A stretch of DNA of 64,000 nucleotides from an uncultured Candidatus Saccharibacteria bacterium. GTDB lineage: Bacteria; Patescibacteriota; Minisyncoccia; UBA6257; 2-01-FULL-56-20. This document shows, one piece after another, positions 2,412-56,308 of this stretch. The stretch lies in NCBI GenBank assembly GCA_965231155.1, contig OZ246418.1, positions 433,242-497,241 of the forward strand, read 5' to 3'. Under the pieces are notes generated by a model. That model made no database searches. It was given only the letters and a program-made list of their open reading frames with translations, and was not told the origin of the DNA. Made by a program: the position numbers and the translations under genes. Positions within the stretch are counted from its first letter, which is position 1. Each line of letters begins with the position of its first letter.

Positions 2412-3357
2412 ACTAAAATTCTTAGTTATTGGTGTACTACTGACATTAGCGGTACCCGTTTTTTCTTTACGACCAGTAGATATTCATGGCACAACTCAGG
2501 TTTTTGAAATAGCGCAAGGAGAGAGATTCTGGCAGATTATTGGTAAATTGCAGAAGGCTGGACTTATTCGTTCATCATCGGTGACTGGCCTTGTGGCTCT
2601 TGGGCGAGGACAGGCAGGCTCACTAAAGCCCGGCCGATATCAGTTAAGCCCCGCATTTTCTAGCGTGGAAATTATTGATCTACTAGAGAATGGTGCGCGT
2701 CATGAGGTAACAGTGGTGGTGCCGGATGGCGCCTCTCTTTATGAAGTCGATATGCTTCTTGCCAAGGCTGGAGTGTTGCTTCCGAATAGTCTTCTTCCGA
2801 AACACGATCAGTTAGAAGGTCGTCTCTTCCCTGACACCTACCGATTTTTTTCAGGCGCTTCTTCTTCTGAGGTAATAGATAAGCTGACACAAAATTTTGA
2901 AATAAAGATTGGCCCTCTTCTGCCCGCAGGAGATGAGGATCAACAGCGGGTGATTATTCTGGCTTCTCTCGTCGAGAAGGAGGTTCCTAATCTTTCCGAT
3001 GGTCAGGTGGTGGCTGGTATCCTAGAAAAACGTCTTCGAGTGGGAATGCCTTTGCAGGTTGATGCTACACTTTGCTATGCGAAATTAGAGCGGGCAGCAA
3101 AGAGGGGGCTACCCTATGAACCGTGTACTCCTCCTTCGGCGTCCGATAAGGCGATTAACTCTCCTTATAACACCTACCGAAACAAGGGTCTCCCTCCCGG
3201 ACCAATTGGTAATCCGAGTCGTTGGGCTTTTGAGGCTGTACTTGGGGCGAAGACCTCTCCTTACTGGTTTTATATTAGCGATCCAAAGACGGGAGCAACT
3301 ATTTTTGCAAAAACCCTCGAGGAGCATAATCGAAATATAGCTAAATACCTACGATAG
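2389..3357 (+). CDS. mltG: endolytic murein transglycosylase MltG (YceG family)
   Basis: N-terminal TM plus the YceG signature SPYNTYRNKGLPPGPIGNPS. Confidence 0.8.
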   Translation: MAFLSDLKLKFLVIGVLLTLAVPVFSLRPVDIHGTTQVFEIAQGERFWQIIGKLQKAGLIRSSSVTGLVALGRGQAGSLKPGRYQLSPAFSSVEIIDLLENGARHEVTVVVPDGASLYEVDMLLAKAGVLLPNSLLPKHDQLEGRLFPDTYRFFSGASSSEVIDKLTQNFEIKIGPLLPAGDEDQQRVIILASLVEKEVPNLSDGQVVAGILEKRLRVGMPLQVDATLCYAKLERAAKRGLPYEPCTPPSASDKAINSPYNTYRNKGLPPGPIGNPSRWAFEAVLGAKTSPYWFYISDPKTGATIFAKTLEEHNRNIAKYLR

Positions 3358-3606: not shown

Positions 3607-6600
3607 ATGTCACTAAAAGTCTCTGAGGTAAAGGATTTTGGTAAGTTTAAGCCAGGGGTCGCGCAGCCACATCTGAACGATGTTCAGATCAATTCGTATG
3701 AGCATTTCTTGAGGAACGGACTGAAGGAGTTGCTCGCGGAGATTTCTCCGATTCGTGATCACACCGGCAAAGAGCTGGAACTTTATTTTGAAGACTATCG
3801 TTTTGATGAGCCAAAGTACGACGAGGTGACCTCTCGTCACAAGGAGGCGACTTTTGAAGCCGCCTTGCGCGTGAAACTCCGTTTAGAAAATAAAAAAACC
3901 GGACAAAGCACTTCTCAGGAAGTGTATCTTGGCGACTTCCCGATTATGACCAAGCGAGGCACGTTCATTATTAATGGCGTGGAACGTGTGGTTATCTCTC
4001 AGTTAATTCGTTCGGCCGGTGTCTATTTTGTGGCGACACCCTGGCATGGACGAAATTTATTTGGAGCAAAGATTATTCCAAACCGTGGCGCCTGGCTTGA
4101 GTTTGAGACTGATGTTGATGGCGTGATTGGTGTAAAGATTGATCGTCACAGAAAAGCGGCCGTTACCGACCTCCTCCGTATCTTTGGTAATACTGAAGAA
4201 ATCTCTCCCTCACTCTTTTCCGATGTGGATAAGGGCACAATTAAATATTTAGAAGCAACCCTCAAAAAAGATGGCGCGAAGGACTTAGCGGAGTCCTATT
4301 TAGAAATCTATCATCGTCTTCGCCCTGGTGATCCGGCGACGATTGAGACGGCTAAGAACTTGGTGGATAGTATGTTTAAGCGTTTTGATCGTTACGATCT
4401 TTCTCCGGTCGGACGTTTCAAGCTGAACCAGCGATTAGGATTTGCTCAGAAAAAAGATCAGCGCCTTTTGGATGTTGATGATCTTTCGGCCATCGTTCGG
4501 GAGATTATCCGTTTGAATAATGATCCACACGCGATGGAGGATGATATCGATCACTTGGGTAATCGTCGTCTTCGTACCGCTGGAGAACTTCTGGAATCTC
4601 GCTTGCGAATCGGTTTGGCTCGTTTGCGACGTATCGTCCAGGATCGAATGTCCACTTTGGAGCGGACTAGCCTTTTGCCAAGTCAGTTGGTGAACTTCCG
4701 TCCATTAGGTGCCGCGGTGAAGGAGTTTTTCTCTTCTTCACAGCTTTCGCAGTTTATGGACCAGGTCAATCCTTTGGCTGAGGTTGAACACAAGCGACGT
4801 CTCTCAGCTCTTGGGCCAGGTGGTCTCACTCGAGAACGTGCTGGCTTTGAAGTGCGCGACGTCCATCGTTCTCACTATGGTCGTATCTGTCCGATTCAGA
4901 CCCCAGAAGGTTCAAACATTGGTTTGATCAACTATTTGGCAAACTTTGCCCGAGTGAACGAACTTGGTTTCTTAGAGGCACCGTATGTGAAGGTGGAGAA
5001 GGGGAAGATTACCAAGGAAGTTATTTGGATGAATGGTTTGGAAGAGGAGCGATACAAGATTGGTCATGGTGGTATTCCTCGCGATGCGAGTGGGAAAATT
5101 ACCCTACCATTAGTAGAAGCTCGTATTAATGGTGAGCCAGGAGTCTGTAGTGCCGAAGATCTGGATTTTGTAGACGTGGCGCCGAATCAGTTTATTTCGG
5201 TGGCGACTTCTTTGATTCCGTTCTTACAGCACGATGACGCCAACCGTGCCTTGATGGGTTCGAACATGCAACGTCAGGCGGTTCCTTCGATTCGTCCACA
5301 GGCGCCGTATGTCGGTACTGGTATGGAAGGGAAGGTGGCTGAAGATTCTGGTTATGTGATTAAGGCTGAAGAGGATGGTGAGATTATTGATGCCGATGCC
5401 CAGCATCTTAAGGTTCGCTATGAAAAAGCCGGCGTGAAAGAGTATCGATTACAGAAGTTTGAACGATCCAACCAGTTTACGAGTCTTTCGCAGCGCCTTT
5501 TGGTCTCGGGTGGCAAGGTGAAGAAGGGACAGAACTTGATTGATGGTCCTTCGACCGATCAGGGGCTCTTGGCGCTTGGACAGAACCTCTTAGTCTCCTT
5601 CGTTTCTTGGGAGGGTGCGAACTTCGAAGACGCTATCATCTTGTCGGAGCGGGTGGTGAAGGATGATCGTTTCACCTCCATTCATATTGAAGATTTCTAC
5701 TGTGATGTCCGTGATACCAAACTTGGTCCTGAAATCACCACGCCAGATATTCCAAATGCCTCTGAAGAAAAACTCCGCAATCTTGATGAGGAGGGTATTA
5801 TTCGTATTGGTGCCGAAGTAAAAGCCGGCGATATTTTAGTTGGAAAAATTTCTCCGAAGGGTGAGGCAGAACTGACTTCCGAAGAACGACTTTTGCGAGC
5901 CATTTTCGGTGAGAAGGCGAGCGATGTGAAAGACACTTCGCTGACCTTGCCACACGGAAAGCGTGGCCGGGTTATTGGTATCAAAGTTTTCTCGCGCGAT
6001 CAGGGTGATAAGCTTGAACCAGGAATTATCCGTCGCATTCAGGTAGAGATTGCTACCTTAATGAAGGTACAGTCTGGTGACAAGCTCGCCGGTCGTCACG
6101 GAAACAAAGGTGTTATTTCCCAGGTTCGTCCAGTCGAAGATATGCCATACCTCGAGGATGGAACGCCAGTGGATATTATTTTGAATCCACTTGGTGTGGT
6201 TTCTCGTATGAACCTTGGACAGATTTTGGAAACGCATCTTGGCTGGGCGGCAGGAACGATGGGCTTCCGCGTGGTTGCTCCAGCTTTGGAGAAGTTTACC
6301 GAGGAGACGCTTCGCAACGAACTCAAGGAGGCTGGTCTTCCAGAAGATGGGAAGGCGGTCCTTTATGATGGACGTACCGGACAGGCATTTGATCACACCG
6401 TGACCGTGGGGCAGATCTATATGCTCAAGCTGAACCACTTGGTCGAAGACAAGATCCACATGCGTTCAATTGGGCCGTACTCTTTGATTACTCAGCAGCC
6501 ACTTGGTGGTAAGGCGCAGTTTGGTGGTCAGCGCTTTGGAGAAATGGAAGTCTGGGCCTTGGAAGGATATGGTGCACGACACGTCTTGCACGAAATGTTG

Positions 6601-9600
6601 ACGATTAAGTCTGACGACGTCTTAGGGCGATCGGCAGCCTATGAAGCGATTATCCGTGGTGAGCAGTTGCACACTTCGAACGTGCCAGCTTCCTTTAATG
6701 TGTTGGTCAATGAGTTGAAAGCGTTAAGTTTTAACATCAATCCATTGCACGAAGAGGTGGCCGGAGCGGATCGTCTGAAGTCTTTGCAGATTAGTATTGC
6801 ATCACCAGAAGATATTATGCGGTGGTCGCATGGTGAGGTACTGAAGCCAGAAACCATCAACTATCGAACACAGCGTCCAGAAAAAGATGGACTGTTTTCT
6901 GAGCGTATTTTCGGTCCAACGAAGGATTATGAGTGTTACTGTGGAAAGTATCGTCGACTACGATACAAGGGAGTGGTGTGTGATAAGTGTGGTGTTGAGG
7001 TGACTCGGGCCATCGTTCGTCGTGACCGACTTGGTCATATCTCTTTAGCGGCACCAGTCAGTCATATTTGGTTCCTGAAGACTGTACCCTCGCGTATGAG
7101 TTTGCTTTTGGACGTTCAGTCCAGCCGTCTCGATCGCGTGGTCTATTATATTGATTACATTATTACAGAAGTTTCCGAGGAGAATCGTCAGCGGGCCTTG
7201 ACCGATCTTGGACGTGAGCTGAAGAGTCGCGTGGGACTCCTGACTAAAAAGGATAAGGAGATGAAAGGCGACCTTGAGGATGCGGCTGAACGAATGGAGG
7301 AGCTTCTGACCGATCTTCGTGTAGGGAGCGTTTTGACTGAAGTTGAGTACTTCCACCTAGCTCGTCGTTTCGGTGATGTTTTCAAGGCGGGCAGTGGCGC
7401 AGAAGCTATTCGCAGTATCTTCGAGAAGATGGATTTGAAGGATGAGGTGCAGAAGGTGAATAAGGCATTGGAGAAGGCGAAGAGTCCACTTTTAGAGATC
7501 AAACTTTTACGTCGGTTGAAGATGCTGAAGTCGATGATCAAACACAACATGCGTCCTGAGTGGATGATCATGACCGTGCTTCCAGTTCTGCCACCAGATC
7601 TTCGTCCGATGGTTGCTTTGGATGGTGGTCGCTATGCCACTTCTGATTTGAACGATCTTTATCGTCGTGTCATCAACCGTAATAATCGATTGAAGAAGCT
7701 TTTAGAGATTAAGGCGCCGGAAGTGATTGTCCGCAACGAGAAGCGTATGCTTCAGGAAGCGGTCGACGCGTTGATTGATAACTCAATTCGTTTCGGCTCT
7801 CAGCAGCTTTCTGCTCAGCGTCGTCCACTACGCTCCTTGTCTGATATGTTGAAAGGAAAGCAGGGACGTTTTCGTCAGAACTTACTTGGAAAGCGCGTCG
7901 ACTACTCTGGCCGTTCGGTCATTGTGGTTGGTCCGAAGTTGGCGATCAACCAGTGTGGTCTGCCAAAGAAGATGGCCTTAGAACTTTTCCGTCCATTCGT
8001 AATTAGTGGCATTATCGCCAAAGGTTTGGCTCACAACATTAGAAATGCCAATCGCTTGATTGAGCAGGGTCCAGATGAGGTCTGGGCAATTCTTGAAGAG
8101 GTGATTAAGGATAAGCGCGTGCTTCTGAACCGTGCGCCAACCTTGCACCGTCTCTCCGTCCAGGCCTTCCGTCCATTCTTGGTTGAAGGTTCGGCTATTC
8201 AGATTCCACCGCTTGTCTGTGATGCCTTTAACGCTGACTTTGATGGTGACCAGATGGCCGTACACGTTCCTTTGTTCGATAAGGCTCAGGAGGAGGCAGC
8301 AAATATTATGGACTCCAGCCACAACTTGCTGAAGCCAGCAACTGGCGATTTGGTGGCCATGCCGAGCAAAGACATGGTCTTGGGTATGTATTATCTGAGT
8401 AGTCTTTTACCGAAGGGTGAGACACTGCGTTCGGTGAATGACATTAATGATGCGCAGTTAGCGTATGATCACAACATTATCTCATTGCGAGAACCAATCT
8501 TGATGCGTACTGCCGAGGGGATCGTCGAGACTTCTTTAGGCCGAGCGATGATTGATAGAATTTTTGAGGGGACTGGCGTGAAGGTGACCGAGAATCTTAC
8601 TAAGAAAAAATTACAGCGATTGATTGAACGGGTTTTTGATAACTGTGGTCCAGAGCGAACGGTGCAGGTCTTGGATGCCGTGAAGTTGCTCGGTTTTGAA
8701 ATGGCCATGCGTTCGGGTACGACCTGGAGCACTGCTGATCTTTTGATTCCGGCCGGTAAGCCAAAAGTTATCGACGAAGCCGAGGAGAAGGTGGCGGTGG
8801 TTCGCGAACAGTTTGAGCAGGGACTTTTGACTGAGTCGGAGCGACGGGTGCGAACTATTGCAGTCTGGGAAGATGCCAAGAAGGCGATTGCTCAGATGGT
8901 AACGAAAGCTTTGCCGATTGATAACTCAATCTACCGAATCATTGATTCTGGTGCGCGTGGTTCGTGGGCTCAGCCAATTCAGATGATGGGTATGAAAGGT
9001 TTGGTGGCCAACCCGAAAGGTGACACTATCGAACTGCCAATTCGATCTTCTCTGAAGGAAGGTTTCAGCGTATTGGAGTACTTCATTGCTACTCACGGTG
9101 CGCGTAAAGGTACTACTGATACCGCGTTGAAGACGGCTCAGGCTGGTTATCTGACACGTCGTTTGGTTGATGTGGCTCAGGATATTATGATCCGTGAAGC
9201 TGACTGTAAGACCAAGGAAGGAATCGAAATCTTCCGTGAAGACGGTGAGGATCTTGGGTACTCATTTGGAAATCGCTTGTTCTCTCGAACAGCGGCCGAG
9301 GAGGTGAAGCTTGGTAACAAGGTGGTGGTCAAAGTTGGTGAGATTATTACCAAAGAAGCGGCTCAGGAGATTGAGAAGTCGAATTTGGCCAGCCTCAAGC
9401 TTCGTTCACCAATTACTTGTAAAACACTCTATGGTATTTGTGGCACCTGTTATGGCTTGAACTTGGCTGACAATCGTCCGGTTGAGGAAGGTCTGGCGGT
9501 TGGTGTTATTGCGGCGCAGTCCATTGGTGAACCGGGAACTCAGCTCACCATGCGTACTTTCCACACTGGTGGTATCGCCGGACTCGACATTACTCACGGT

Positions 9601-10398
9601 TTGCCTCGTATCGAAGAGCTTTTCGAAGCACGGGCACCAAAAGGTAAGGCAATTCTTGCCATGGCCGATGGAGTGATTGAAAGTGTTGAGACGAAGGGAA
9701 ATCTGAAGATCTTGGCACTCAAGGAAACTGGTGGACGAGTAGGTAAAGTGGCCAAAGTCACGAAGACGGCTAAGAAGGATAAAATTATCGAATACAAGTT
9801 GCCAGCCCACGCCATGGTGTATGTGAAAGCTGGAGATATGGTTCAGCGGGGGACTCAGCTCTCTGAGGGTCACTTGGATCTTCGCGAGTTGCTCACATTG
9901 AAGGGTACGCAGGAAGTTATTCGGTATATTACTCGCGAGGTGCACAAGATTTACTTGGCAGAAGGTGCTTCGATTCACAACAAGCATATCGAGGTCATCA
10001 TTCGTCAGATGTTCTCTCGGGTGAAGATTTCCGAGTCTGGTGACGCACCAGATTTGATCTTGGGAGAGATTGTGGAGCGATCTCGTTTCCTTGAGGTTAA
10101 TCGTGAGTTGAAGAAGCAGGGTAGTGGTTTGGCTCAGGCCGAACAGTTACTCTTGGGTATCACTCGCGTCGCCCTTTCCACTGAGAGTTTCCTTTCGGCA
10201 GCTTCTTTCCAGGATACGCCACGGGCGTTGGTGAAGGCCGCAGTTGAGGGGAGAATCGATGCCCTTCGTGGTCTTAAGGAAAATGTTATTATCGGGCGCC
10301 TCATTCCTACGGGTTCCATTATCTCCGAGGAGCCGGTTTCTGATGAGGGAATTGCCGCTGCTACCTCTGTTTCCGAAGCCGTAGAAGATGAGTCCTAA
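3607..10398 (+). CDS. rpoBC: DNA-directed RNA polymerase beta-beta' fusion (RpoB fused in frame to RpoC)
   Basis: N-terminal 1050 aa carry RpoB motifs ([43 protein letters not shown]) and end with an E. coli-like RpoB C-terminus ([22 protein letters not shown]). After a short [11 protein letters not shown] linker comes the RpoC N-terminus ([51 protein letters not shown]) and [14 protein letters not shown]. There is no stop or frameshift at the junction (about nt 6760). Confidence 0.9.
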
Positions 10399-15391: not shown

Positions 15392-15477
15392 TGGTGCCCG
15401 GGGTGGGATTCGAACCCACAACCCCTTTCGAGGCAAGGATTTTAAGTCCTCTGCGTAAACCGTTCCGCCACCCGGGC
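15392..15477 (-). tRNA. tRNA-Leu (anticodon TAA), type II with long variable arm, CCA encoded
   Basis: Reverse complement reads GCCCGGGTGGCGGAACGG...GAGGA-CTTAAAA-TCCTT...GGGTTCGAATCCCACCCCGGGCACCA. 7-bp acceptor stem, TPsiC GTTCGAATC, long variable arm. Confidence 0.85.
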
Positions 15478-16674: not shown

Positions 16675-16677
16675 TTG

Positions 16678-16749
16678 AGGCGCGGGGGAGAATCGAACTC
16701 CCGAATAGTTCTTTTGCAGAGAACTGCCTTACCACTTGGCCACCGCGCC
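16678..16749 (-). tRNA. tRNA-Cys (anticodon GCA), CCA not encoded
   Basis: Reverse complement: GGCGCGG-TG-GCCAAGTGGTAAGGC-A-GTTCT-CTGCAAA-AGAAC-TATTC-GGGAGTTCGATTCTCCC-CCGCGCC. Cloverleaf with GCA in the anticodon loop. Confidence 0.8.
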
Positions 16750-19484: not shown

Positions 19485-19666
19485 CGTGGGAGTATTATAC
19501 CACTTTGGGTATCCAGTGCGGAGAGGGAGGCCTTTATGAGAAATGTTTCTTTATAAATGCATGACTAGGGCCAGTTTTAGGGTGTTTCTCAAGCCCGAAT
19601 ACTTTATGCCTGGTATCAATATATAATTAATGGGGCACTCGAAAAAATACTTATTTCTTGGGACCA

Positions 19667-19695
19667 TTGACAAATGGTCTCATTTGTTTTATAAA
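19667..19695 (+). promoter_or_regulatory. near-consensus sigma70 promoter TTGACA-17-TATAAA
   Basis: TTGACA at 19667-19672, 17-nt spacer, TATAAA at 19690-19695, about 25 nt upstream of an AGGAGG RBS and the ATG at 19721. Confidence 0.45.
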
Positions 19696-19720
19696 GCTGA
19701 TAGCTTATTAGGAGGGCAAA

Positions 19721-20011
19721 ATGCTCGAAGTATTGATTTCCATTGGGGACTATCTCGAGGCCGGATTGATCCATGCCTACCTGGGCGTCCTCTGGATCCT
19801 TCTGGCGGTTGTGGTGTTCTTATCGGGTTCTATGATGAACAACATGATCGCCTTTAAGGGGTGGAGGGGTAACGAATACCTGACTTGCGGATTCGCTCCT
19901 CCGCGGAGGAGCGAAGGAATGAGGTGGACCCGCCACACCTACTGGGGGCTGTGGGCTACTGAGGTGATTATCTTAGGACTGATCACCTTTCGACACTGCA
20001 TGACCTCCTAA
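19721..20011 (+). CDS. hypothetical small membrane protein (locally GC-enriched gene)
   Basis: 96 aa; AGGAGG RBS 7 nt upstream; strong promoter upstream and hairpin terminator downstream; 2 TM segments; no known motif. Confidence 0.45.
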   Translation: MLEVLISIGDYLEAGLIHAYLGVLWILLAVVVFLSGSMMNNMIAFKGWRGNEYLTCGFAPPRRSEGMRWTRHTYWGLWATEVIILGLITFRHCMTS

Positions 20012-20019
20012 GAACATTA

Positions 20020-20052
20020 GCCATGGAATGAATAATTCCATGGCTTTTTTAT
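20020..20052 (+). terminator. rho-independent terminator
   Basis: GCCATGGAAT-gaataa-TTCCATGGC followed by TTTTTTATTTTT. Confidence 0.65.
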
Positions 20053-20063
20053 TTTTATTAATG

Positions 20064-20150
20064 CGGAGAGGGAGGGATTCGAACCCTCGAGGGAGTTGCC
20101 CCCCTAACATCTTAGCAGGATGCTGCCTTCAGCCACTCGGCCACCTCTCC
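20064..20150 (-). tRNA. tRNA-Ser (anticodon GCT), type II, CCA not encoded
   Basis: Reverse complement GGAGAGG-TG-GCCGAGTGGCTGAAGGC-A-GCATC-CTGCTAA-GATGT-long variable arm GGGGGGCAACTCCCTC-GAGGGTTCGAATCCCTC-CCTCTCC-G. Confidence 0.8.
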
Positions 20151-40984: not shown

Positions 40985-42406
40985 TTATTTTATTTCTTTT
41001 TCTCCTGATTTATAAATAACCAACGGCGAAGCATTTTTTTTCCAGGCGCCAATGATTGGATCAATAAACTGCCAACTTGCTTTGATTTCTTCGGTGCTCA
41101 CAAAGAGCATTTGATTTCCATCAATGACATCCTGAAGGAGTTTATCATAAGCATCGATAAAGGGAAGATGAGGGTAGGCTTGTTGATAATCAAAGAAGAA
41201 ATCTTTTTCTTCAACTATCATTTCTGTGCCAGGTTTTTTTACCCAAAAGGAGAGAGTGATTTTCTCACCGGGCTGAATCCGATAGCGAAGTGTATTTTGA
41301 TAGTGAAGGGATGAACCAAGACCAGGACAAAGACAGGGGGATGGTGGTTTGAAAGTAATGATAACCTCGACTTCTGATCGGTTCATTTTTTTACCCCCTT
41401 CGAGGAAGATGTCTACTCCTTTCCAGCGAGGCGTATCTATGGAAGTCTGGAGGCGGAAGTAGGTTTCCGTGAGCGACTTCCGATCGATCATTTTTTCTGT
41501 CTTGTAGTCATCATACTGTCCACGAATTGTTTTCTGGGAGACATCTTTTGGCTTGAAAGGAGTGAGTTTTTGAATGACTTTCGCTCGCTCCCGATGGATC
41601 TTTTTTGCTTCTAGGGTGCCTGGATTTTCCATGGTGAAAAGAGAAAGGAGTTGGAGAAGGTGATTCTGTCCAACATCGCGCAATGCACCGGTTGCATCAT
41701 AAAACTCACCTCGTGATCCAACACCTTCTTTTTCCCAGAACTTTATGTGGATACTTTGGATATTTTTCTTGTTCCAAGATGGTTCAAAAATAGCATTTGA
41801 GAAACGGAAGGCCATAATGTTCTGGACAGTTTCTTTACCAAGATAGTGATCGATGCGGTATATTTGTTCTTCTCGAAATAGTTTCCCAAGAAGTAGATCA
41901 AGGTTTTCAGCAGTTTTTGCGTCCTTTCCAAATGGTTTCTCCACAACTACTCGTGTCCAACCCTCTTCTGGACTACAGGGTATGGTCAGTCCGGAGTTCT
42001 TTAGATTTTTGAAAATAGTGGTGTAATGGTCTGGTGCAGTGGAAAGATAGAAAAGTTTATTAGCACAAGTTTTCCATTGTTTGTCTTGAGCGCCAAGGAG
42101 TGTGGCTAGAGTAGCGTAGCCTTCTTTTTGATCAAATAGCCCTTGCGTGTAGGTGATCAGTTTCAAAAAGGATTCAAGATCTTTATCTTTTTGGTGATTT
42201 CTGAAGGCTTTTAAGTTTTTGAGTGTTTTCCTGAATTCCTCCGTACTCATCTCTCGTCTCGAAAACCCCACTATCTGAAAGAGGGGAGGGAGAAGTTTCT
42301 TTTGATGGAGTCGGAAGAGGGCGGGGATTATTTTTTGACTTGCCAGGTCTCCGGTTGCTCCAAAGATGACGAAGATGGTGGGAAGATAGCTGGGCTGAGT
42401 TGCCAT
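40985..42406 (-). CDS. zwf: glucose-6-phosphate 1-dehydrogenase
   Basis: IFGATGDLASQKIIPALF; RIDHYLGKE active-site motif. Confidence 0.9.
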   Translation of the reverse strand: MATQPSYLPTIFVIFGATGDLASQKIIPALFRLHQKKLLPPLFQIVGFSRREMSTEEFRKTLKNLKAFRNHQKDKDLESFLKLITYTQGLFDQKEGYATLATLLGAQDKQWKTCANKLFYLSTAPDHYTTIFKNLKNSGLTIPCSPEEGWTRVVVEKPFGKDAKTAENLDLLLGKLFREEQIYRIDHYLGKETVQNIMAFRFSNAIFEPSWNKKNIQSIHIKFWEKEGVGSRGEFYDATGALRDVGQNHLLQLLSLFTMENPGTLEAKKIHRERAKVIQKLTPFKPKDVSQKTIRGQYDDYKTEKMIDRKSLTETYFRLQTSIDTPRWKGVDIFLEGGKKMNRSEVEVIITFKPPSPCLCPGLGSSLHYQNTLRYRIQPGEKITLSFWVKKPGTEMIVEEKDFFFDYQQAYPHLPFIDAYDKLLQDVIDGNQMLFVSTEEIKASWQFIDPIIGAWKKNASPLVIYKSGEKEIK

Positions 42407-49704: not shown

Positions 49705-50283
49705 TTAGTCACCCATTTGCCAAGCTTTAATGGCGGGAATGGGGGAGATAAGCATGATGATATTAAGAAGTAGGCTGTCACGAATCCAGAGGGCAAGGAT
49801 GATTTCTATAACGATCATAAGGAGAATGGTTGCCCAGGATGGGAGTTTGTAAGCCATAAGGAAACCGATAATGCAGCCAAATATATCGCCCATGGTATTG
49901 AGAATGCTATCGCCATAATAATCGAGAGAGATGGTGGCTTCACGATAGCGATTGATAACAAAATCGGTGTTTTCAAAAATCTCCCAACCAGCCTCCAGCC
50001 CAACTGCGAGAACAAGTCTCTGGCCTACTGTCAGTCTTTTTCTGAAAAAGAGCCAAAGAAAAAAATATAAAAGAATACCGTGAATAATGTGCGTAAAGGT
50101 ATAGGGATCAAACAGTTGCTGAGAGTTTTGGTCGCTTTGTACATTTCCTGACCACAATCCTGGTGGGCCATACTTGTACCAAGGTGTCTGCCCCATTGAG
50201 AGAAGAACAGCTCCTGCGAGAAGAAGCACCCCGCCGATAAGGAGCCAGTGTTTTTGAGAGACGTCTAAGAACATTCTTTTCAT
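49705..50283 (-). CDS. polytopic membrane protein (DUF2585/UPF0314-like)
   Basis: 192 aa, 5 TM; FDPYTFTHIIHG block. Confidence 0.4.
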   Translation of the reverse strand: MKRMFLDVSQKHWLLIGGVLLLAGAVLLSMGQTPWYKYGPPGLWSGNVQSDQNSQQLFDPYTFTHIIHGILLYFFLWLFFRKRLTVGQRLVLAVGLEAGWEIFENTDFVINRYREATISLDYYGDSILNTMGDIFGCIIGFLMAYKLPSWATILLMIVIEIILALWIRDSLLLNIIMLISPIPAIKAWQMGD

Positions 50284-50390
50284 TATATCGGTTTCGGAGG
50301 AATTTGGGTAAAAAAAACCGGCACATGAAGTGTCGGTACCTGTGGGTTGCCTACAGGCGGAGGGCTAGGGGTGAAGGTTCGCGTTGGCGA

Positions 50391-50717
50391 TCAGGCCTTG
50401 GCCGTGGTCTGGGTGTTGAAGCCGTCGATGAAAGCCTGGATCTCCTCCGGCGTTGCCTGGACGAAACCGCCGCCACGGGTGTTGCCGAGCAGGTAGCTTC
50501 CGTCGGCGAGCTTCGCCGCCTTGATGCAGTTCGGGGCGCCCGCGCCGCTGAACTTCCGCCAGTTGAGGTGTCCGGGATTGATCGGACTTCTGGAGACGCG
50601 ACCGCCGTGGTTGAGCGACACCATGATCTCGGCGCTCCTGTTCTTGCGGCCCATGCGGCGACCGTCGCTCTGACGGGGTTGGCGGCTATTACGGCCATGA
50701 CGCTTCTGGCTACTCAT
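50391..50717 (-). CDS. hypothetical small basic protein encoded in a GC-rich (about 62% GC, GC3 above 80%) island
   Basis: 108 aa; AGGAGGT Shine-Dalgarno 5 nt upstream of the ATG; Arg/Lys-rich N-terminus (SSQKRHGRNSRQPRQSDGRRMGRKNRSAE) and Gly-rich C-terminal half; codon usage unlike the flanking genes. Confidence 0.5.
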   Translation of the reverse strand: MSSQKRHGRNSRQPRQSDGRRMGRKNRSAEIMVSLNHGGRVSRSPINPGHLNWRKFSGAGAPNCIKAAKLADGSYLLGNTRGGGFVQATPEEIQAFIDGFNTQTTAKA

Positions 50718-50892
50718 ACGTACCTCCTGTACGTTCGAGGCTTGCAGCCTCTGTTTGGAGCCTTGCGACTCCGGGTTGATGGAATCCCCACCGGATCTCC
50801 GCTCACGAAGACCTGGGGGGCGCTAGGGACAGATAGTATCAGAAATAGATAATCCGTCAAGTCGTGGGCTGTGGATTCTTTATCAGGGCCAG

Positions 50893-51291
50893 TTAACTGT
50901 TTCTGCTTCGATTTTTTCTGGCGAGACACCATTTATCTTCGCCAGAGAGGGCGACTGAGAGTGTGGCGAAAGCTAAACCAAAATCGCGCACGCCAGTGGG
51001 GCTTAGTCCAAATCCTGAGGCAATAACAAAGAGATGGATGGCCAGTAAGCCGGCGACATAGCGAACGAGAATTCCGATGATCAGAAGAATGCTGGCGAGG
51101 ACTTCGAAAATGCCATTCATTTTTACGATCAATGAGGCGTCTAATCCGGATAGATTTGTGGCCCAACTTGGCACAATGCCAGCCCATGTCTGCGGATCGG
51201 TTAACTGAGAGATTCCAAACCAGAGAAAGACAGCGGAGAGAGAAAAACGGAGAAGAAGGGGTGCGTAGAGGGGGAGTTTTTCTAAGTTCAT
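50893..51291 (-). CDS. DoxX-family membrane protein
   Basis: 132 aa, 4 TM; LLRFSLSAVFLWFGISQL typical DoxX N-terminus. Confidence 0.7.
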   Translation of the reverse strand: MNLEKLPLYAPLLLRFSLSAVFLWFGISQLTDPQTWAGIVPSWATNLSGLDASLIVKMNGIFEVLASILLIIGILVRYVAGLLAIHLFVIASGFGLSPTGVRDFGLAFATLSVALSGEDKWCLARKNRSRNS

Positions 51292-52811: not shown

Positions 52812-55160
52812 ATGAAGAAGGATATCGAAAATATCCAGAAATATGTGCGGGCAACAAATTATATTGTGGCAGCACAGTTGTATCTTCAGGATAATTTTTT
52901 ACTGGAAAGGAAACTGACTCAGGCGGATATCAAACCCCGTCTTTTGGGTCACTGGGGGACTTGTCCGGGAATCAACTTTGTCTATGCACAACTGAATTAT
53001 CTGATTAAGAAGCATGACCTGGAGATGCTTTTCGTGCTTGGCCCGGGGCATGGCTTTCCAGCCTTACAGGCCAATCTCTTTTTAGAAGGAACGTTAGAAA
53101 AATTCTACCCTCAAGCTACTCGAGACGAGGCCGGTCTGGCGTATATCGCGAAAAACTTCAGCTGGCCATATGGATTTCCGAGTCACTCTAATCCTGGTAC
53201 GCCGGGTGTTATTTTGGAAGGAGGGGAGTTGGGGTATTCGCTTTCAACAGCCTATGGTGCGGTGCTTGATAATCCGAATCTTATCGCGGCTTGTTTGATT
53301 GGTGATGGCGAGGCGGAGACTGGGCCGTTAGCGACTGCCTGGCATTTAAATAAATTTGTCAGTCCACGGACGAGCGGTACGGTTTTGCCAATTTTACATC
53401 TCAACGGATATAAGATCTCCGGTCCGACCGTTTTTGGCAGAATGAGCGACAAGGAACTCCTTTCTCTTTTCTATGGATATGGCTACGATCCGGTTATTGT
53501 GGAGGGCGAAACTACTGCCGTATACGAAAAAATGGCTACGACCCTTGAGGCGTCATACCGCAAGATTGTTACTTTGCGAAAGAAAGCGCGGAAGGGCAAA
53601 GGTGTTGTTTCGCCTCGCTGGCCGATGATCATTCTTCGCACACCAAAAGGTTGGACTGGCATAAAAACATTGAAGGGCAAAAAAATTGAAGGTAACTGTC
53701 TGGCCCATCAAATTGTGGGCACTGAAGCAAAGACTGACAAGGAGGAGTTTGTGGCGGTGGAGTCGTGGATGCGTTCGTATAAAATCGCACAACTTTTTTC
53801 TAAAGAAGCAGGATTTTCTAAGGAAGTGCTCAGTCTTGTGCCGCGGGAAGAACTGCGTATGGGGATGAGTCCTCATGCCCTGGCTAAAAATAGTAAGAGT
53901 TTAGTTTTACCAAAGACGGATAAGTTTTTGAAAAAGACTGGTGCGCCGGGCAGTGTGACGGCCAGCAGTATGATTCAGGCAGGGGCATTTTTAAGGGAGG
54001 TGATTCGTCTTAATGATAAAGAAAAAAACTTTCGATTTTTCTCGCCGGACGAGACCTACTCCAATAAACTTGATGTAATTTTTGAGGTGACGAAGCGGTC
54101 TTTTGTCTGGCCACGGAAACCCTGGGATAAGGATCTGGCTGATGATGGCCGAGTGATTGAGATGCTCAGTGAGCATTCCTTGCAGGGCTTGAATCAGGGG
54201 TATGTCCTGACCGGTCGTCATGCGGTGTTCGCATCGTATGAGGCGTTTGTGGAGATTGTTTCGAGTATGGTTGATCAGTATGCCAAGTTTTTGCGCGTGT
54301 CGCGCGAGGAGATCCCTTGGCGCAATGAAGTTCCTTCGCTGAACTACATTTTAACCTCTTCTGGATGGCGACAGGAGCATAATGGTTTTTCTCATCAGAA
54401 TCCGTCGTTTATTAGTGCCATGCTTGAGAAGCAGGGATGTTTTGTGAAGGTTTATTTTCCTCCAGATGCGAATAGTACTCTTGAAGTACTGAAGGCCTGC
54501 CTCGAAATGAAAAACGAAATTCATGTCATTGTGGCCGGGAAGACTCCTGAGCCTTTATGGCTCACGCCTGAACTGGCGAGAAAAGAACTGAGTCGTGGCT
54601 TGATGGTCTGGGATTTTGCCAGCGATGATAATCCCGACATTGTCTTTGCCGGTATCGGCGACTATCTCACCAAAGAAGCCTTAGCTGCGGTGGATGTACT
54701 GAAAGACAAGCTTCCTCGTCTACGGATCCGGTTTGTAAATATCATGGAACTGACCGCTCTGGGTATTGGCGATGAGAGTTGCCGTGTGTCCTTGCTTGAT
54801 TCAGATGAGTTTTTCACTCATGATAAGCCGGTTATTATGAATTTTTATGGCCATCCAGAAGCGCTTCAGCCAATGGTGGTAGCTCAGAAACATCCTGGTC
54901 GTTTTCGGGTGCATGGCTATATCGAACATGGTTCCACAACCACGCCGTTTGATATGCAGGTGAGAAATAAGACTAGTCGGTATCATTTGGCCATCGAGGC
55001 GGTCCAGTTGATGGCTGAGAAGTGCGTCATTATGAAGAGTCAGGCAGATGAGTTGCAGGCGGAGTGGGAGGAAATTTTAAAGAATCATCGTGCGTATATC
55101 GAGGAGTATGGTATCGATCCTCCGGAAATAGAAAACTGGAAATGGAAAAGAAATATTTAA
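52812..55160 (+). CDS. xfp: xylulose-5-phosphate/fructose-6-phosphate phosphoketolase
   Basis: 782 aa; LGHWGTCPGINFVYAQLN, EGGELGYSLSTAYGAVLDNPNLIAACLIGDGEAETG (ThDP motifs), characteristic length. Confidence 0.9.
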   Translation: MKKDIENIQKYVRATNYIVAAQLYLQDNFLLERKLTQADIKPRLLGHWGTCPGINFVYAQLNYLIKKHDLEMLFVLGPGHGFPALQANLFLEGTLEKFYPQATRDEAGLAYIAKNFSWPYGFPSHSNPGTPGVILEGGELGYSLSTAYGAVLDNPNLIAACLIGDGEAETGPLATAWHLNKFVSPRTSGTVLPILHLNGYKISGPTVFGRMSDKELLSLFYGYGYDPVIVEGETTAVYEKMATTLEASYRKIVTLRKKARKGKGVVSPRWPMIILRTPKGWTGIKTLKGKKIEGNCLAHQIVGTEAKTDKEEFVAVESWMRSYKIAQLFSKEAGFSKEVLSLVPREELRMGMSPHALAKNSKSLVLPKTDKFLKKTGAPGSVTASSMIQAGAFLREVIRLNDKEKNFRFFSPDETYSNKLDVIFEVTKRSFVWPRKPWDKDLADDGRVIEMLSEHSLQGLNQGYVLTGRHAVFASYEAFVEIVSSMVDQYAKFLRVSREEIPWRNEVPSLNYILTSSGWRQEHNGFSHQNPSFISAMLEKQGCFVKVYFPPDANSTLEVLKACLEMKNEIHVIVAGKTPEPLWLTPELARKELSRGLMVWDFASDDNPDIVFAGIGDYLTKEALAAVDVLKDKLPRLRIRFVNIMELTALGIGDESCRVSLLDSDEFFTHDKPVIMNFYGHPEALQPMVVAQKHPGRFRVHGYIEHGSTTTPFDMQVRNKTSRYHLAIEAVQLMAEKCVIMKSQADELQAEWEEILKNHRAYIEEYGIDPPEIENWKWKRNI

Positions 55161-56308
55161 TTGTTAATCTTGGTAGTGCCTCGAAGAAGTATGCTCTGTA
55201 CGGCGAGCATAAGGAGATTGCGCGTATTCATTTTGAGAAGGAGGGGAGGGGGTTTGTGGCTACTCTGAAGGATGGTCGAGTCAGTACCTTGCCGGCGACA
55301 AAACAGCAGTACAACTCTGGTGTCGATTTTTTCCTGAAGAAATTATTAGCCAAGCATATTATTGACGATGTGCGAGAGATCACCTTGGCTGGTATCAGAA
55401 TTGTGGCGCCGGGAGATTTTTTTATGGAGGTCAGACCAGTTGATGCGTTGTATATCAAGAATCTAAAGTCGGTGATGAGCCTTGTTCCGTTGCATGCTTC
55501 GATGGTCTTTGACGAACTGAGAGAACTGCGACGAGTGCTCCCTCGTACCAGAATATTTGGAATTTCTGACAGCGCCTTCCATAAAGACTTACCCGAAGTT
55601 GCTCAGGCGTATGCAATTCCTAAGATTTCTAGCGAGGTGCCAATTCGTCGGTATGGGTATCATGGCATCTCTTTGTTTTCAGCAATGCGGACGATTCGTC
55701 AGCAGTTCCATCGGACTCCGAAGAGAATCATCATCTGCCACCTTGGAAGCGGCGCGAGTGTGACTGCGATTAAGGACGGAAAGAGTATCGATACTTCGAT
55801 GGGCTTCACGCCACTCGAAGGAGTGCCGATGGGGACTCGGCCTGGTGATCTTGATCCAGGAGTGGTGATGTATATCAGTAAGACTTTAAAATTATCCTTG
55901 GCGGAACTTGATGTGTTTTTAAATACTAAATCGGGTTTGTTGGGAGTGAGTGGCGAAACAAACGATGTCAGAGATCTTTTGGCCTACGAACGAAAGGGTG
56001 ATAAGAAGTCTGCCTTAGCCTTATCGCTTTTCGCGTATCGAATTAAGAAATATATTGGTGCCTTCCAGGCGGTATTAGGAGGGTTGGATCTGTTAGTTTT
56101 CACGGGTACGATTGGCGAACGTTCTTGGGCGATGCGCGAGCGAATTTGCGAGGGACTAGCCCATGTTGGTGTAAAAATTGATGTAAAGAAAAACAGACAG
56201 ATAAATGGTTTCGGGCGAGTTGAGAAGCGGGGTGCGAAAACGACTATTGCCGTAGTGCCCACGGATGAGATGATCGAGCTTTTTGAGGAGTTGAGGACTC
56301 AGAAGTAG
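55142..56308 (+). CDS. ackA: acetate kinase
   Basis: KYLIVNLGSASKKYALY N-terminus, RYGYHGISL, ICHLGSGASVTAI, FTGTIGERS; start overlaps xfp stop by 19 nt. Confidence 0.9.
   Translation: MEKKYLIVNLGSASKKYALYGEHKEIARIHFEKEGRGFVATLKDGRVSTLPATKQQYNSGVDFFLKKLLAKHIIDDVREITLAGIRIVAPGDFFMEVRPVDALYIKNLKSVMSLVPLHASMVFDELRELRRVLPRTRIFGISDSAFHKDLPEVAQAYAIPKISSEVPIRRYGYHGISLFSAMRTIRQQFHRTPKRIIICHLGSGASVTAIKDGKSIDTSMGFTPLEGVPMGTRPGDLDPGVVMYISKTLKLSLAELDVFLNTKSGLLGVSGETNDVRDLLAYERKGDKKSALALSLFAYRIKKYIGAFQAVLGGLDLLVFTGTIGERSWAMRERICEGLAHVGVKIDVKKNRQINGFGRVEKRGAKTTIAVVPTDEMIELFEELRTQK

Follow-up and report, generated by a model that had tools for sequence, protein, structure and literature searches.

The 64,000-nt stretch of contig OZ246418.1 analysed here (assembly GCA_965231155.1, positions 433,242 to 497,241 of the forward strand; hereafter the window, numbered from its first letter) contains a guanine-plus-cytosine (GC)-rich island at 50285-50892, which carries a minus-strand open reading frame (ORF) for a 108-residue protein. 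The best overall explanation, to which we give a probability of about 0.55, is that the island is an old and actively maintained expression cassette for a basic-tailed, BldB/DUF397-like protein.

GC content and coding potential of the island

The GC content of the window was 45.2%, that of region 50285-50892 was 60.0% and that of the ORF at 50391-50717 (-) was 64.5%. The island was the top GC outlier among all 327-nt and 608-nt windows, with runners-up of 56% and 52.5%. The GC content at the first, second and third codon positions (GC1, GC2 and GC3) of the ORF was 0.57, 0.54 and 0.83, about 7 standard deviations in GC3 over the other genes of the window, of which the 51 long ORFs had a mean GC3 of 0.455 (standard deviation 0.053, maximum 0.58). 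The codon-position pattern of high-GC genes, GC3 >> GC1 > GC2, was present in the annotated frame only. An earlier reading made from the letters alone (the sequence-only reading) had described an abrupt composition shift around an outlier ORF with a GC3 above 80%, and these values bear it out. Its 108-residue translation, the AGGAGG placed 5 nt ahead of the ATG and the flanking DUF2585 (E 6e-63) and DoxX (E 1e-9) genes were also found as described. The GC-rich part proper was 50310-50825, which coincided with the predicted transcript.

The 108-residue ORF is a true protein-coding gene under purifying selection. The ratio of nonsynonymous to synonymous divergence (dN/dS) was 0.46 between the window and its closest relative (protein P0001 of contig L001) and 0.18 between the closest pair of relatives (L003 and L005). 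The Shine-Dalgarno (SD) site, start codon and stop codon were all kept between the window and L001, and the lengths of both coding sequences (CDS), like those of the whole family, were divisible by three. Third positions in all members were mostly C (~55%), followed by G (~30%). This codon choice departed sharply from that of S6, SSB, RpoBC and IF-2 of the same genome (GC3 0.43-0.50) and, since those genes lacked such a codon bias, ordinary translational selection was rejected as the cause of the GC content.

As predicted from sequence, the island is a monocistronic cassette with a promoter, a structured 5' untranslated region (UTR), the CDS, a structured 3'UTR and an intrinsic terminator, and it is probably strongly expressed. 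Its parts are as follows.

50833-50860 (-): sigma-70-type promoter from a consensus scan, with -35 TTGACG, a 16-nt spacer and an extended -10 TG-A-TACTAT
50718-50825 (-): predicted 5'UTR of ~108 nt with 61% GC, from a predicted start site
~50786-50820, 50757-50772 and 50737-50751 (-): 5'UTR hairpins, namely a long 5'-proximal one, one with a GNRA loop and a third
50723-50728 (-): SD AGGAGG, displayed in a short hairpin within 50719-50733
50391-50717 (-): CDS of the 108-residue protein (isoelectric point, pI, 11.6), GC3 0.83, dN/dS 0.18-0.46
50310-50390 (-): 3'UTR with a conserved hairpin (50338-50358), a terminator hairpin (50317-50337) and a run of eight T (50310-50317)

Relatives of the gene and conservation of its composition

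A phmmer search with the protein was exhaustive over 1.84 billion cluster representatives. It recovered four true relatives of the same type and one classical DUF397 protein (P0009, E 9e-5), and a profile search added one more relative. The family is rare, with only five other members in ~15 billion proteins. The five relatives lie on six contigs (L001-L006) from independent Logan, ENA and JGI assemblies, L005 and L006 being the same over their overlap. The small protein had no relative in 185,579 GTDB species representatives, and none of 80 DUF2585 loci from named genomes had the small gene or a GC island beside DUF2585. Scans with the promoter pattern found nothing in viral contigs and only three matches in metagenome contigs, all by chance.

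The proteins of the family were only 25-58% identical. Nevertheless, the small gene in every relative locus had 60-65% GC and a GC3 of 0.81-0.92, compared to a GC3 of 0.33-0.66 for the surrounding genes and 40-52% GC for the contigs. Each copy had a near-consensus promoter, a GC-rich 5'UTR of 49-110 nt which opened with a stable hairpin, an AGGAGG- or AAGGAG-type SD and a GC-rich 3'UTR which ended in a strong intrinsic terminator. The -35 element, a TCTGnTACTAT block and a start-site motif were common to the window, L001, L003/L005 and L004, so that the promoter and start-site motif (TTGACG, N10, TTCTGATACTAT, NNGTNCCNAGC) were shared by subclades with only ~36% identical proteins. The GC content of the parts across loci was:

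5'UTR: 54-61%
CDS: 60-65%
3'UTR: 56-60%
100 nt beyond either transcript end: 24-47%

The GC anomaly is therefore a conserved property of the gene which spans the predicted transcript including the UTRs. The sequence-only reading had named a match to a ubiquitous, conserved Patescibacteria protein with similar GC in relatives as evidence that would count against its interpretation; similar GC was found in the relatives, but the protein is rare and not ubiquitous.

Homology and predicted structure of the protein

The sequence-only reading had found no family for the protein, but a DUF397 assignment can be made. In the Pfam DUF397 model (PF04149) the window protein scored 16.2 bits (E 0.012) over profile positions 2-53 of 55, below the gathering cut-off of 24 bits. 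Protein P0005 scored 18.9 bits, the classical member P0009 scored 60 bits and P0001, P0007 and P0008 had no match to the model. An hhalign comparison of the family alignment with eight classical DUF397 proteins gave a probability of 96.7% (E 3.4e-10) over 58 columns. By these comparisons, the protein is a divergent, fast-evolving DUF397/BldB homologue which forms a new branch of the superfamily and is not a typical member. PHROGs, PADLOC and NCBIfam held no model for this Patescibacteria branch.

The AlphaFold2 model of the window protein had a mean predicted local distance difference test (pLDDT) score of 70, with 74-86 in the core. It showed a disordered Arg/Lys-rich tail at residues 1-30, two extra strands (31-37 and 40-46) and then a DUF397-like domain (residues ~51-104) with strands at 53-56, 65-69, 75-79 and 85-88 and a helix at 90-104. 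The topology of four strands and a terminal helix, known here from the AlphaFold2 model only, agrees with the published description of DUF397 (PMC7159879). Structure and PDB searches showed no solved or viral predicted structure matching the window protein.

Comparison with classical DUF397 proteins showed that the Trp at the domain start and the Cys of strand 2 (C64) were invariant and that the 'E-x-x-A-F' of the C-terminal helix was kept. The CxE motif of strand 2 was not kept, being CIK or CLK in the window and L001 and CLQ, CIQ or CVQ elsewhere, compared to CVE in all classical members. The RDS motif at the end of strand 3 was also not kept: this position was G-N-T in the window and L001, R-N-T in L002 and T-S-N or SNR in L003-L005, compared to R-D-S, R-D-T or R-N-S in classical members. 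The segment before the domain was strongly basic in every member (pI 10-12; 12 for the window tail), while that of the classical protein is short and acidic. No helix-turn-helix (HTH; Xre/WhiJ-like) or AbaA partner gene flanked the ORF in the window or L001-L006, while the classical member P0014 does adjoin an HTH_31/DUF5753 gene.

A PDB sequence search also produced a resemblance to ribosomal protein bL35 (for example Thermus 'KRHLNWQKS') at 50547-50636 (-), residues ~28-57. It covered 33 pre-domain residues with an E of 0.38-0.49, which is not significant, and was rejected.

Structure of the untranslated regions

The leader of the window folded with a z-score of -3.1 to -4.2 against shuffles. 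Across loci the z-scores were -1.9 to -4.2 for the 5'UTR and -1.4 to -9.5 for the 3'UTR, the latter being -2.2 in the window and -4 to -9.5 in other lineages. A structured leader of about 175 nt had been proposed by the sequence-only reading. The structure is supported, at z ~-3 to -4, but the predicted length is ~108 nt because the promoter occupies 50860-50833.

The window and L001 leaders had four hairpins, one of them with a GNRA loop. Between these two leaders there was one compensatory pair (G-C to C-G, in the SD hairpin) and five one-sided substitutions that preserved pairing. The SD lay within a short hairpin in the window, L001, L003 and L004. In the 3'UTR hairpins, compensatory U-A to C-G changes were present in both alignable pairs, including window and L001. 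The intergenic region plus leader of these two loci was 86% identical with a peak of 92-98% over 50767-50846, compared to 68-70% for the neighbouring genes and 61% for the CDS. Constraint on the leader is the favoured explanation for this identity, because the elevation was limited to ~250 nt. Leaders of different subclades were mutually unalignable. A search in Rfam 15, a check proposed by the sequence-only reading for a possible regulatory RNA, showed no match in the whole window at the gathering score, and region 50250-50950 had none even at E≤10. On this comparison the leader does not belong to a conserved riboswitch class or a known RNA family.

Genomic context and history

The neighbours of the cassette are as follows.

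49705-50283 (-): DUF2585 membrane protein gene, the downstream neighbour (Pfam E 5.6e-63)
50893-51291 (-): DoxX gene, the next gene upstream, which borders the insertion site on the left (Pfam E 1e-9)

The neighbourhood also includes Cyt-b5 and a pair of NUDIX genes. The cassette was preceded by DoxX in both the window and L001. The gene that follows it in the window is DUF2585; the L001 contig ends too early for this gene to be identified. In L003, L005/L006 and L004 the cassette was directly upstream of DUF2585, with differing upstream neighbours. A DUF2585 scan of GTDB species representatives produced the 80 loci mentioned above, the closest being from Patescibacteria metagenome-assembled genomes (MAGs). 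L007 is a Candidatus Saccharibacteria MAG which was syntenic with the window, with 61-78% amino acid identity for Cyt-b5, DoxX, DUF2585, NUDIX and Obg. The DoxX neighbourhood was syntenic in L001, L007 and L058. Both L007 and L058 were free of the cassette, and in them the DoxX stop codon overlaps the DUF2585 start codon.

The flanking genes of cassette-bearing lineages were 52-72% identical at the protein level and the synonymous divergence (dS) of DUF2585 between lineages was 1.6 to >3, which indicated saturated synonymous sites. The relationships of the small proteins (window with L001; L003/L005 with L004; L002 as outlier) paralleled those of the flanking genes. The cassette appears to be old and not recent because it has the same position and composition across lineages saturated at synonymous sites. 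From these comparisons we infer one old acquisition with mostly vertical descent and some losses. In addition, the GC composition is probably actively maintained in every lineage because it persisted through saturating synonymous divergence, during which an unameliorated relic would decay to a GC3 of ~0.45-0.5.

Comparison of L003 (1-2243) with L005 showed 98-100% identity over the 1.4 kb upstream of the start codon, while the downstream parts had diverged to 77% for the CDS, 90% for the 3'UTR and 82% for DUF2585. This pattern reads as recombination with a sharp breakpoint close to where the small gene starts, and not as leader-specific constraint. Hypermutation specific to the CDS was rejected, since DUF2585 was equally diverged.

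The DUF2585 gene of the window has its own TATAAT (50282-50287), placed 7 nt before the second ATG and directly after the cassette terminator, and has no SD; it is probably leaderless. The adjacency of the cassette to DUF2585, a predicted lipid head-group-modifying "Lipocone" enzyme (bioRxiv 10.1101/2025.01.14.632903), may be functional or, given the strong terminator between the two genes, only positional. As a separate observation, the DUF2585 genes of L004 (~3075-3100) and L005 (~2435-2458) had TATAAT or TATACT 6-7 nt before the ATG and no SD.

Alternative explanations

The island could instead be a mobile or repeatedly exchanged cassette, passed among Patescibacteria or arriving from high-GC donors, with a site preference upstream of DUF2585, in which case its GC content would come from influx and not from selection. 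Presence or absence of the cassette between syntenic genomes, the recombination breakpoint at the cassette in L003/L005, the different context of L002, the failure of DUF2585 similarity to unite cassette-bearing genomes and the occurrence of a classical DUF397 gene on phage-like DNA fit this explanation. However, the cassette borders showed no terminal inverted or direct repeats, target-site duplication or recombinase and the neighbours are housekeeping genes. The phage, plasmid and viral collections contained no match to the cassette, and tblastn against the phage and plasmid collections showed no match to the small protein. Furthermore, the parallel relationships of the small proteins and flanking genes argue against frequent exchange, and no member with the family-specific tail was found in a high-GC genome. 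The cassette is not a recognisable mobile element and we consider the explanation unlikely.

GC-biased gene conversion at a local recombination hotspot, independent of function, is slightly less likely still. It would account for a GC enrichment that affects coding and non-coding parts alike and for a CDS without excess structure, and the L003/L005 breakpoint is in line with it. The GC borders, on the other hand, were sharp at the predicted start site and terminator with no gradient, the adjacent DUF2585 and DoxX genes had no GC elevation and the window contained a single copy of the small gene, with no second copy to convert against.

The protein could also be an epibiont-made mimic of host BldB/DUF397 regulators which acts in or on the actinobacterial host cell, a reading we regard as improbable. 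The Arg-rich tail would then mediate translocation or the binding of nucleic acids, and the domain would form hetero-oligomers with BldB paralogues of the host. In an extreme version the host-like codon usage, promoter type (TTGAC-N17-TAnnnT) and SD would be selected since the nucleic acid is expressed in the host. Direct support for this reading is limited to the membership of the protein in an actinobacterial family, a host-like composition that has been maintained and the known lifestyle of Saccharibacteria with Actinobacteria.

The sequence-only reading had favoured a recent acquisition from high-GC Actinobacteria or Proteobacteria, which would not yet have ameliorated in this genome. The foreign composition was confirmed and an actinobacterial origin is plausible, the codon usage being actinobacterial in type, the family being otherwise actinobacterial and a syntenic relative lacking the cassette. 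A proteobacterial donor found no support. The "recent" part of the claim has to be given up: the same GC-anomalous cassette was present in five other assemblies with proteins 25-58% identical, at the same position in lineages whose flanking genes are synonymously saturated, the AT-rich promoter was common to subclades and no close donor was found among the ~15 billion proteins. Recent acquisition is thus very improbable, marginally more so than the host-mimic reading.

A structured non-coding RNA, with the ORF accidental or with an antisense ORF of 182 residues (50304-50852) as the real gene, is less credible again. Structured RNAs often account for GC-rich islands in genomes richer in AT, the UTRs here were structured and several frames were open, among them antisense frame 0 in all six loci. 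The sense frame, however, had a GC3 far above its GC1 and GC2, a dN/dS of 0.18, conserved SD, start and stop codons, CDS lengths in multiples of three and a product homologous to DUF397, while the CDS fold z-score was ~0 and Rfam showed no match. An antisense or alternative-frame gene was rejected, since the codon-position GC of the antisense frame was not coding-like; the open frame is the expected shadow of a sense gene that avoids TTA, CTA and TCA codons.

Finally, an assembly chimera of high-GC foreign reads in a low-GC contig, which the sequence-only reading had named as the other option in view of the abrupt composition shift, can be dismissed almost entirely because the same architecture was present in five other independent assemblies (Logan, ENA and JGI) and the borders coincide with the predicted promoter and terminator.

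Proposed mechanism

In the old, maintained cassette that we prefer, Actinobacteria or their phages are the most likely source of the DUF397-like domain. Two facts make an actinobacterial origin plausible: the domain shares homology with DUF397, which is reported only in Actinobacteria (PMC7159879; PMC2701414), and cultured Saccharibacteria live as parasites on actinobacterial hosts (bioRxiv 10.1101/2025.01.22.634366). The closest classical DUF397 protein, P0009, matched phrog_10815 and was encoded on contig L090 (1-3583), a contig of 55-65% GC with small same-strand ORFs and an HNH endonuclease; DUF397 genes therefore seem to travel also on actinophage-like DNA. The cassette would have been gained by an ancestor of a narrow clade of Saccharibacteria-like bacteria, at a site directly upstream of DUF2585, and then inherited mostly vertically and lost in some relatives. 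As a leading but tentative guess, the GC-richness may be kept by selection for a compact, nuclease-resistant, long-lived and well-translated mRNA, which the stable 5' and 3' hairpins, consensus promoter and perfect SD would fit.

By analogy with BldB, whose family works through oligomers formed with paralogues and WhiJ-type partners (PMC10294661), the protein is probably a small oligomerising regulator. As the Xre partner is missing, nucleic-acid binding would fall to the basic tail, and the protein may feed back on its own conserved leader.

Several points weigh against this reading. The fold z-score of the CDS was ~0 against dinucleotide shuffles, so no specific structure accounts for the GC3 of the CDS and specific RNA structure in the CDS was rejected. 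An old conversion tract could inflate the leader identity between the window and L001, and the high 5'UTR identity of L003 and L005 stems from a recombination tract. The L002 gene was in a different context without DUF2585. The DUF2585 sequences placed the window nearer to the cassette-free L007 than to the cassette-bearing L004 and L005; therefore losses or some lateral movement must have occurred, and a single gain requires later losses. The Saccharibacteria-like assignment comes from synteny with a single named MAG, none of the collections searched contained a donor sequence that has the basic tail, and five independent lineages give little power for structure covariation or for inference of gain and loss. 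The proposed function is purely by analogy, and the biochemical function of BldB itself is unknown (PMC10294661).

Other features of the window

A gap of ~450 nt without credible ORF was found within ~19540-20060, with GC up to 55% beside tRNA-Ser(gct). It showed no meaningful Rfam match and may be an unrecognised RNA, or nothing. A 96-residue ORF at 19721-20008 had the second-highest GC3 (0.71) and no family; it was rejected as a second similar cassette.

Elsewhere the window contained the following features.

1-537: 23S rRNA 3' end (1-346) and 5S rRNA (420-537)
3607-10398 (+): ORF of 2,263 residues which is an rpoB-rpoC fusion, with Rpb2 domains to residue 1045 and Rpb1 from residue 1056
15392-15477: tRNA-Leu(taa)
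16677-16749: tRNA-Cys(gca)
20063-20150: tRNA-Ser(gct)
40985-42406 (-): glucose-6-phosphate dehydrogenase
52812-56308 (+): phosphoketolase (XFP), followed by acetate kinase

With the phosphoketolase, acetate kinase and glucose-6-phosphate dehydrogenase, this reduced genome has a compact module for sugar catabolism of the phosphoketolase type.

Comparison with known systems

The window protein shares with DUF397/BldB proteins of Actinobacteria its small size and a homologous domain of 55-60 residues, with four beta-strands and a terminal helix as predicted here. BldB itself also has an N-terminal extension and a poor match to the Pfam model (PMC10294661). Unlike those proteins, it falls below the Pfam gathering score, has altered CxE and RDS motifs and carries a basic disordered tail and two extra strands. 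Its gene differs as well, being present once in the window, with its own promoter and terminator, without an Xre, WhiJ or AbaA partner and in a low-GC Patescibacteria-type host; classical DUF397 genes adjoin an Xre-family HTH gene and often occur several times in one genome. The actinobacterial distribution of DUF397 does not extend to the present family, for which the host contigs had 40-52% GC and the window was syntenic with a Candidatus Saccharibacteria MAG.

The domain is also shared with the predicted Xre-DUF397 type II toxin-antitoxin pairs, in which it was proposed as the toxin (Makarova et al. 2009, PMC2701414). In contrast to those pairs, the six loci here had no HTH antitoxin gene and the small gene was not in an operon pair, multicopy or plasmid-borne; the cassette is not a toxin-antitoxin pair. 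Streptomyces experiments (PMC10364602) treat Xre-DUF397 pairs as regulators and not as toxin-antitoxin systems.

Compared to un-ameliorated transferred genes, the classical GC islands, the cassette is likewise foreign in base composition and in codon usage, patchily distributed and missing from a syntenic relative. It differs in that it has not drifted to host composition in five lineages despite saturated flanks and in that the anomaly is confined to one transcript including its UTRs. The E. coli ompA 5'UTR is an example of an mRNA stabilised by a 5'-terminal stem-loop. The cassette resembles such mRNAs, as far as sequence goes, in the stable hairpin a few nt from the predicted 5' end, the strong 3' hairpins and the strong SD, and differs from them in the compositional shift of its whole coding region.

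Overall, a GC island alone is not evidence of recent transfer. A transcript that, despite saturating divergence, keeps ~63% GC and a GC3 >0.8 in genomes of 40-52% GC offers a clean natural test of composition maintenance, for which mRNA selection, biased gene conversion and gene influx are the candidates. By published description, BldB/DUF397 proteins occur only in Actinobacteria and there regulate development and the production of antibiotics via unknown biochemistry. A divergent, solitary and tail-bearing relative in Saccharibacteria-like epibionts is a candidate for a host-derived gene co-opted by the parasite and, given that cultured Saccharibacteria parasitise Actinobacteria, the cassette would be a concrete lead into the molecular interplay between epibiont and host.

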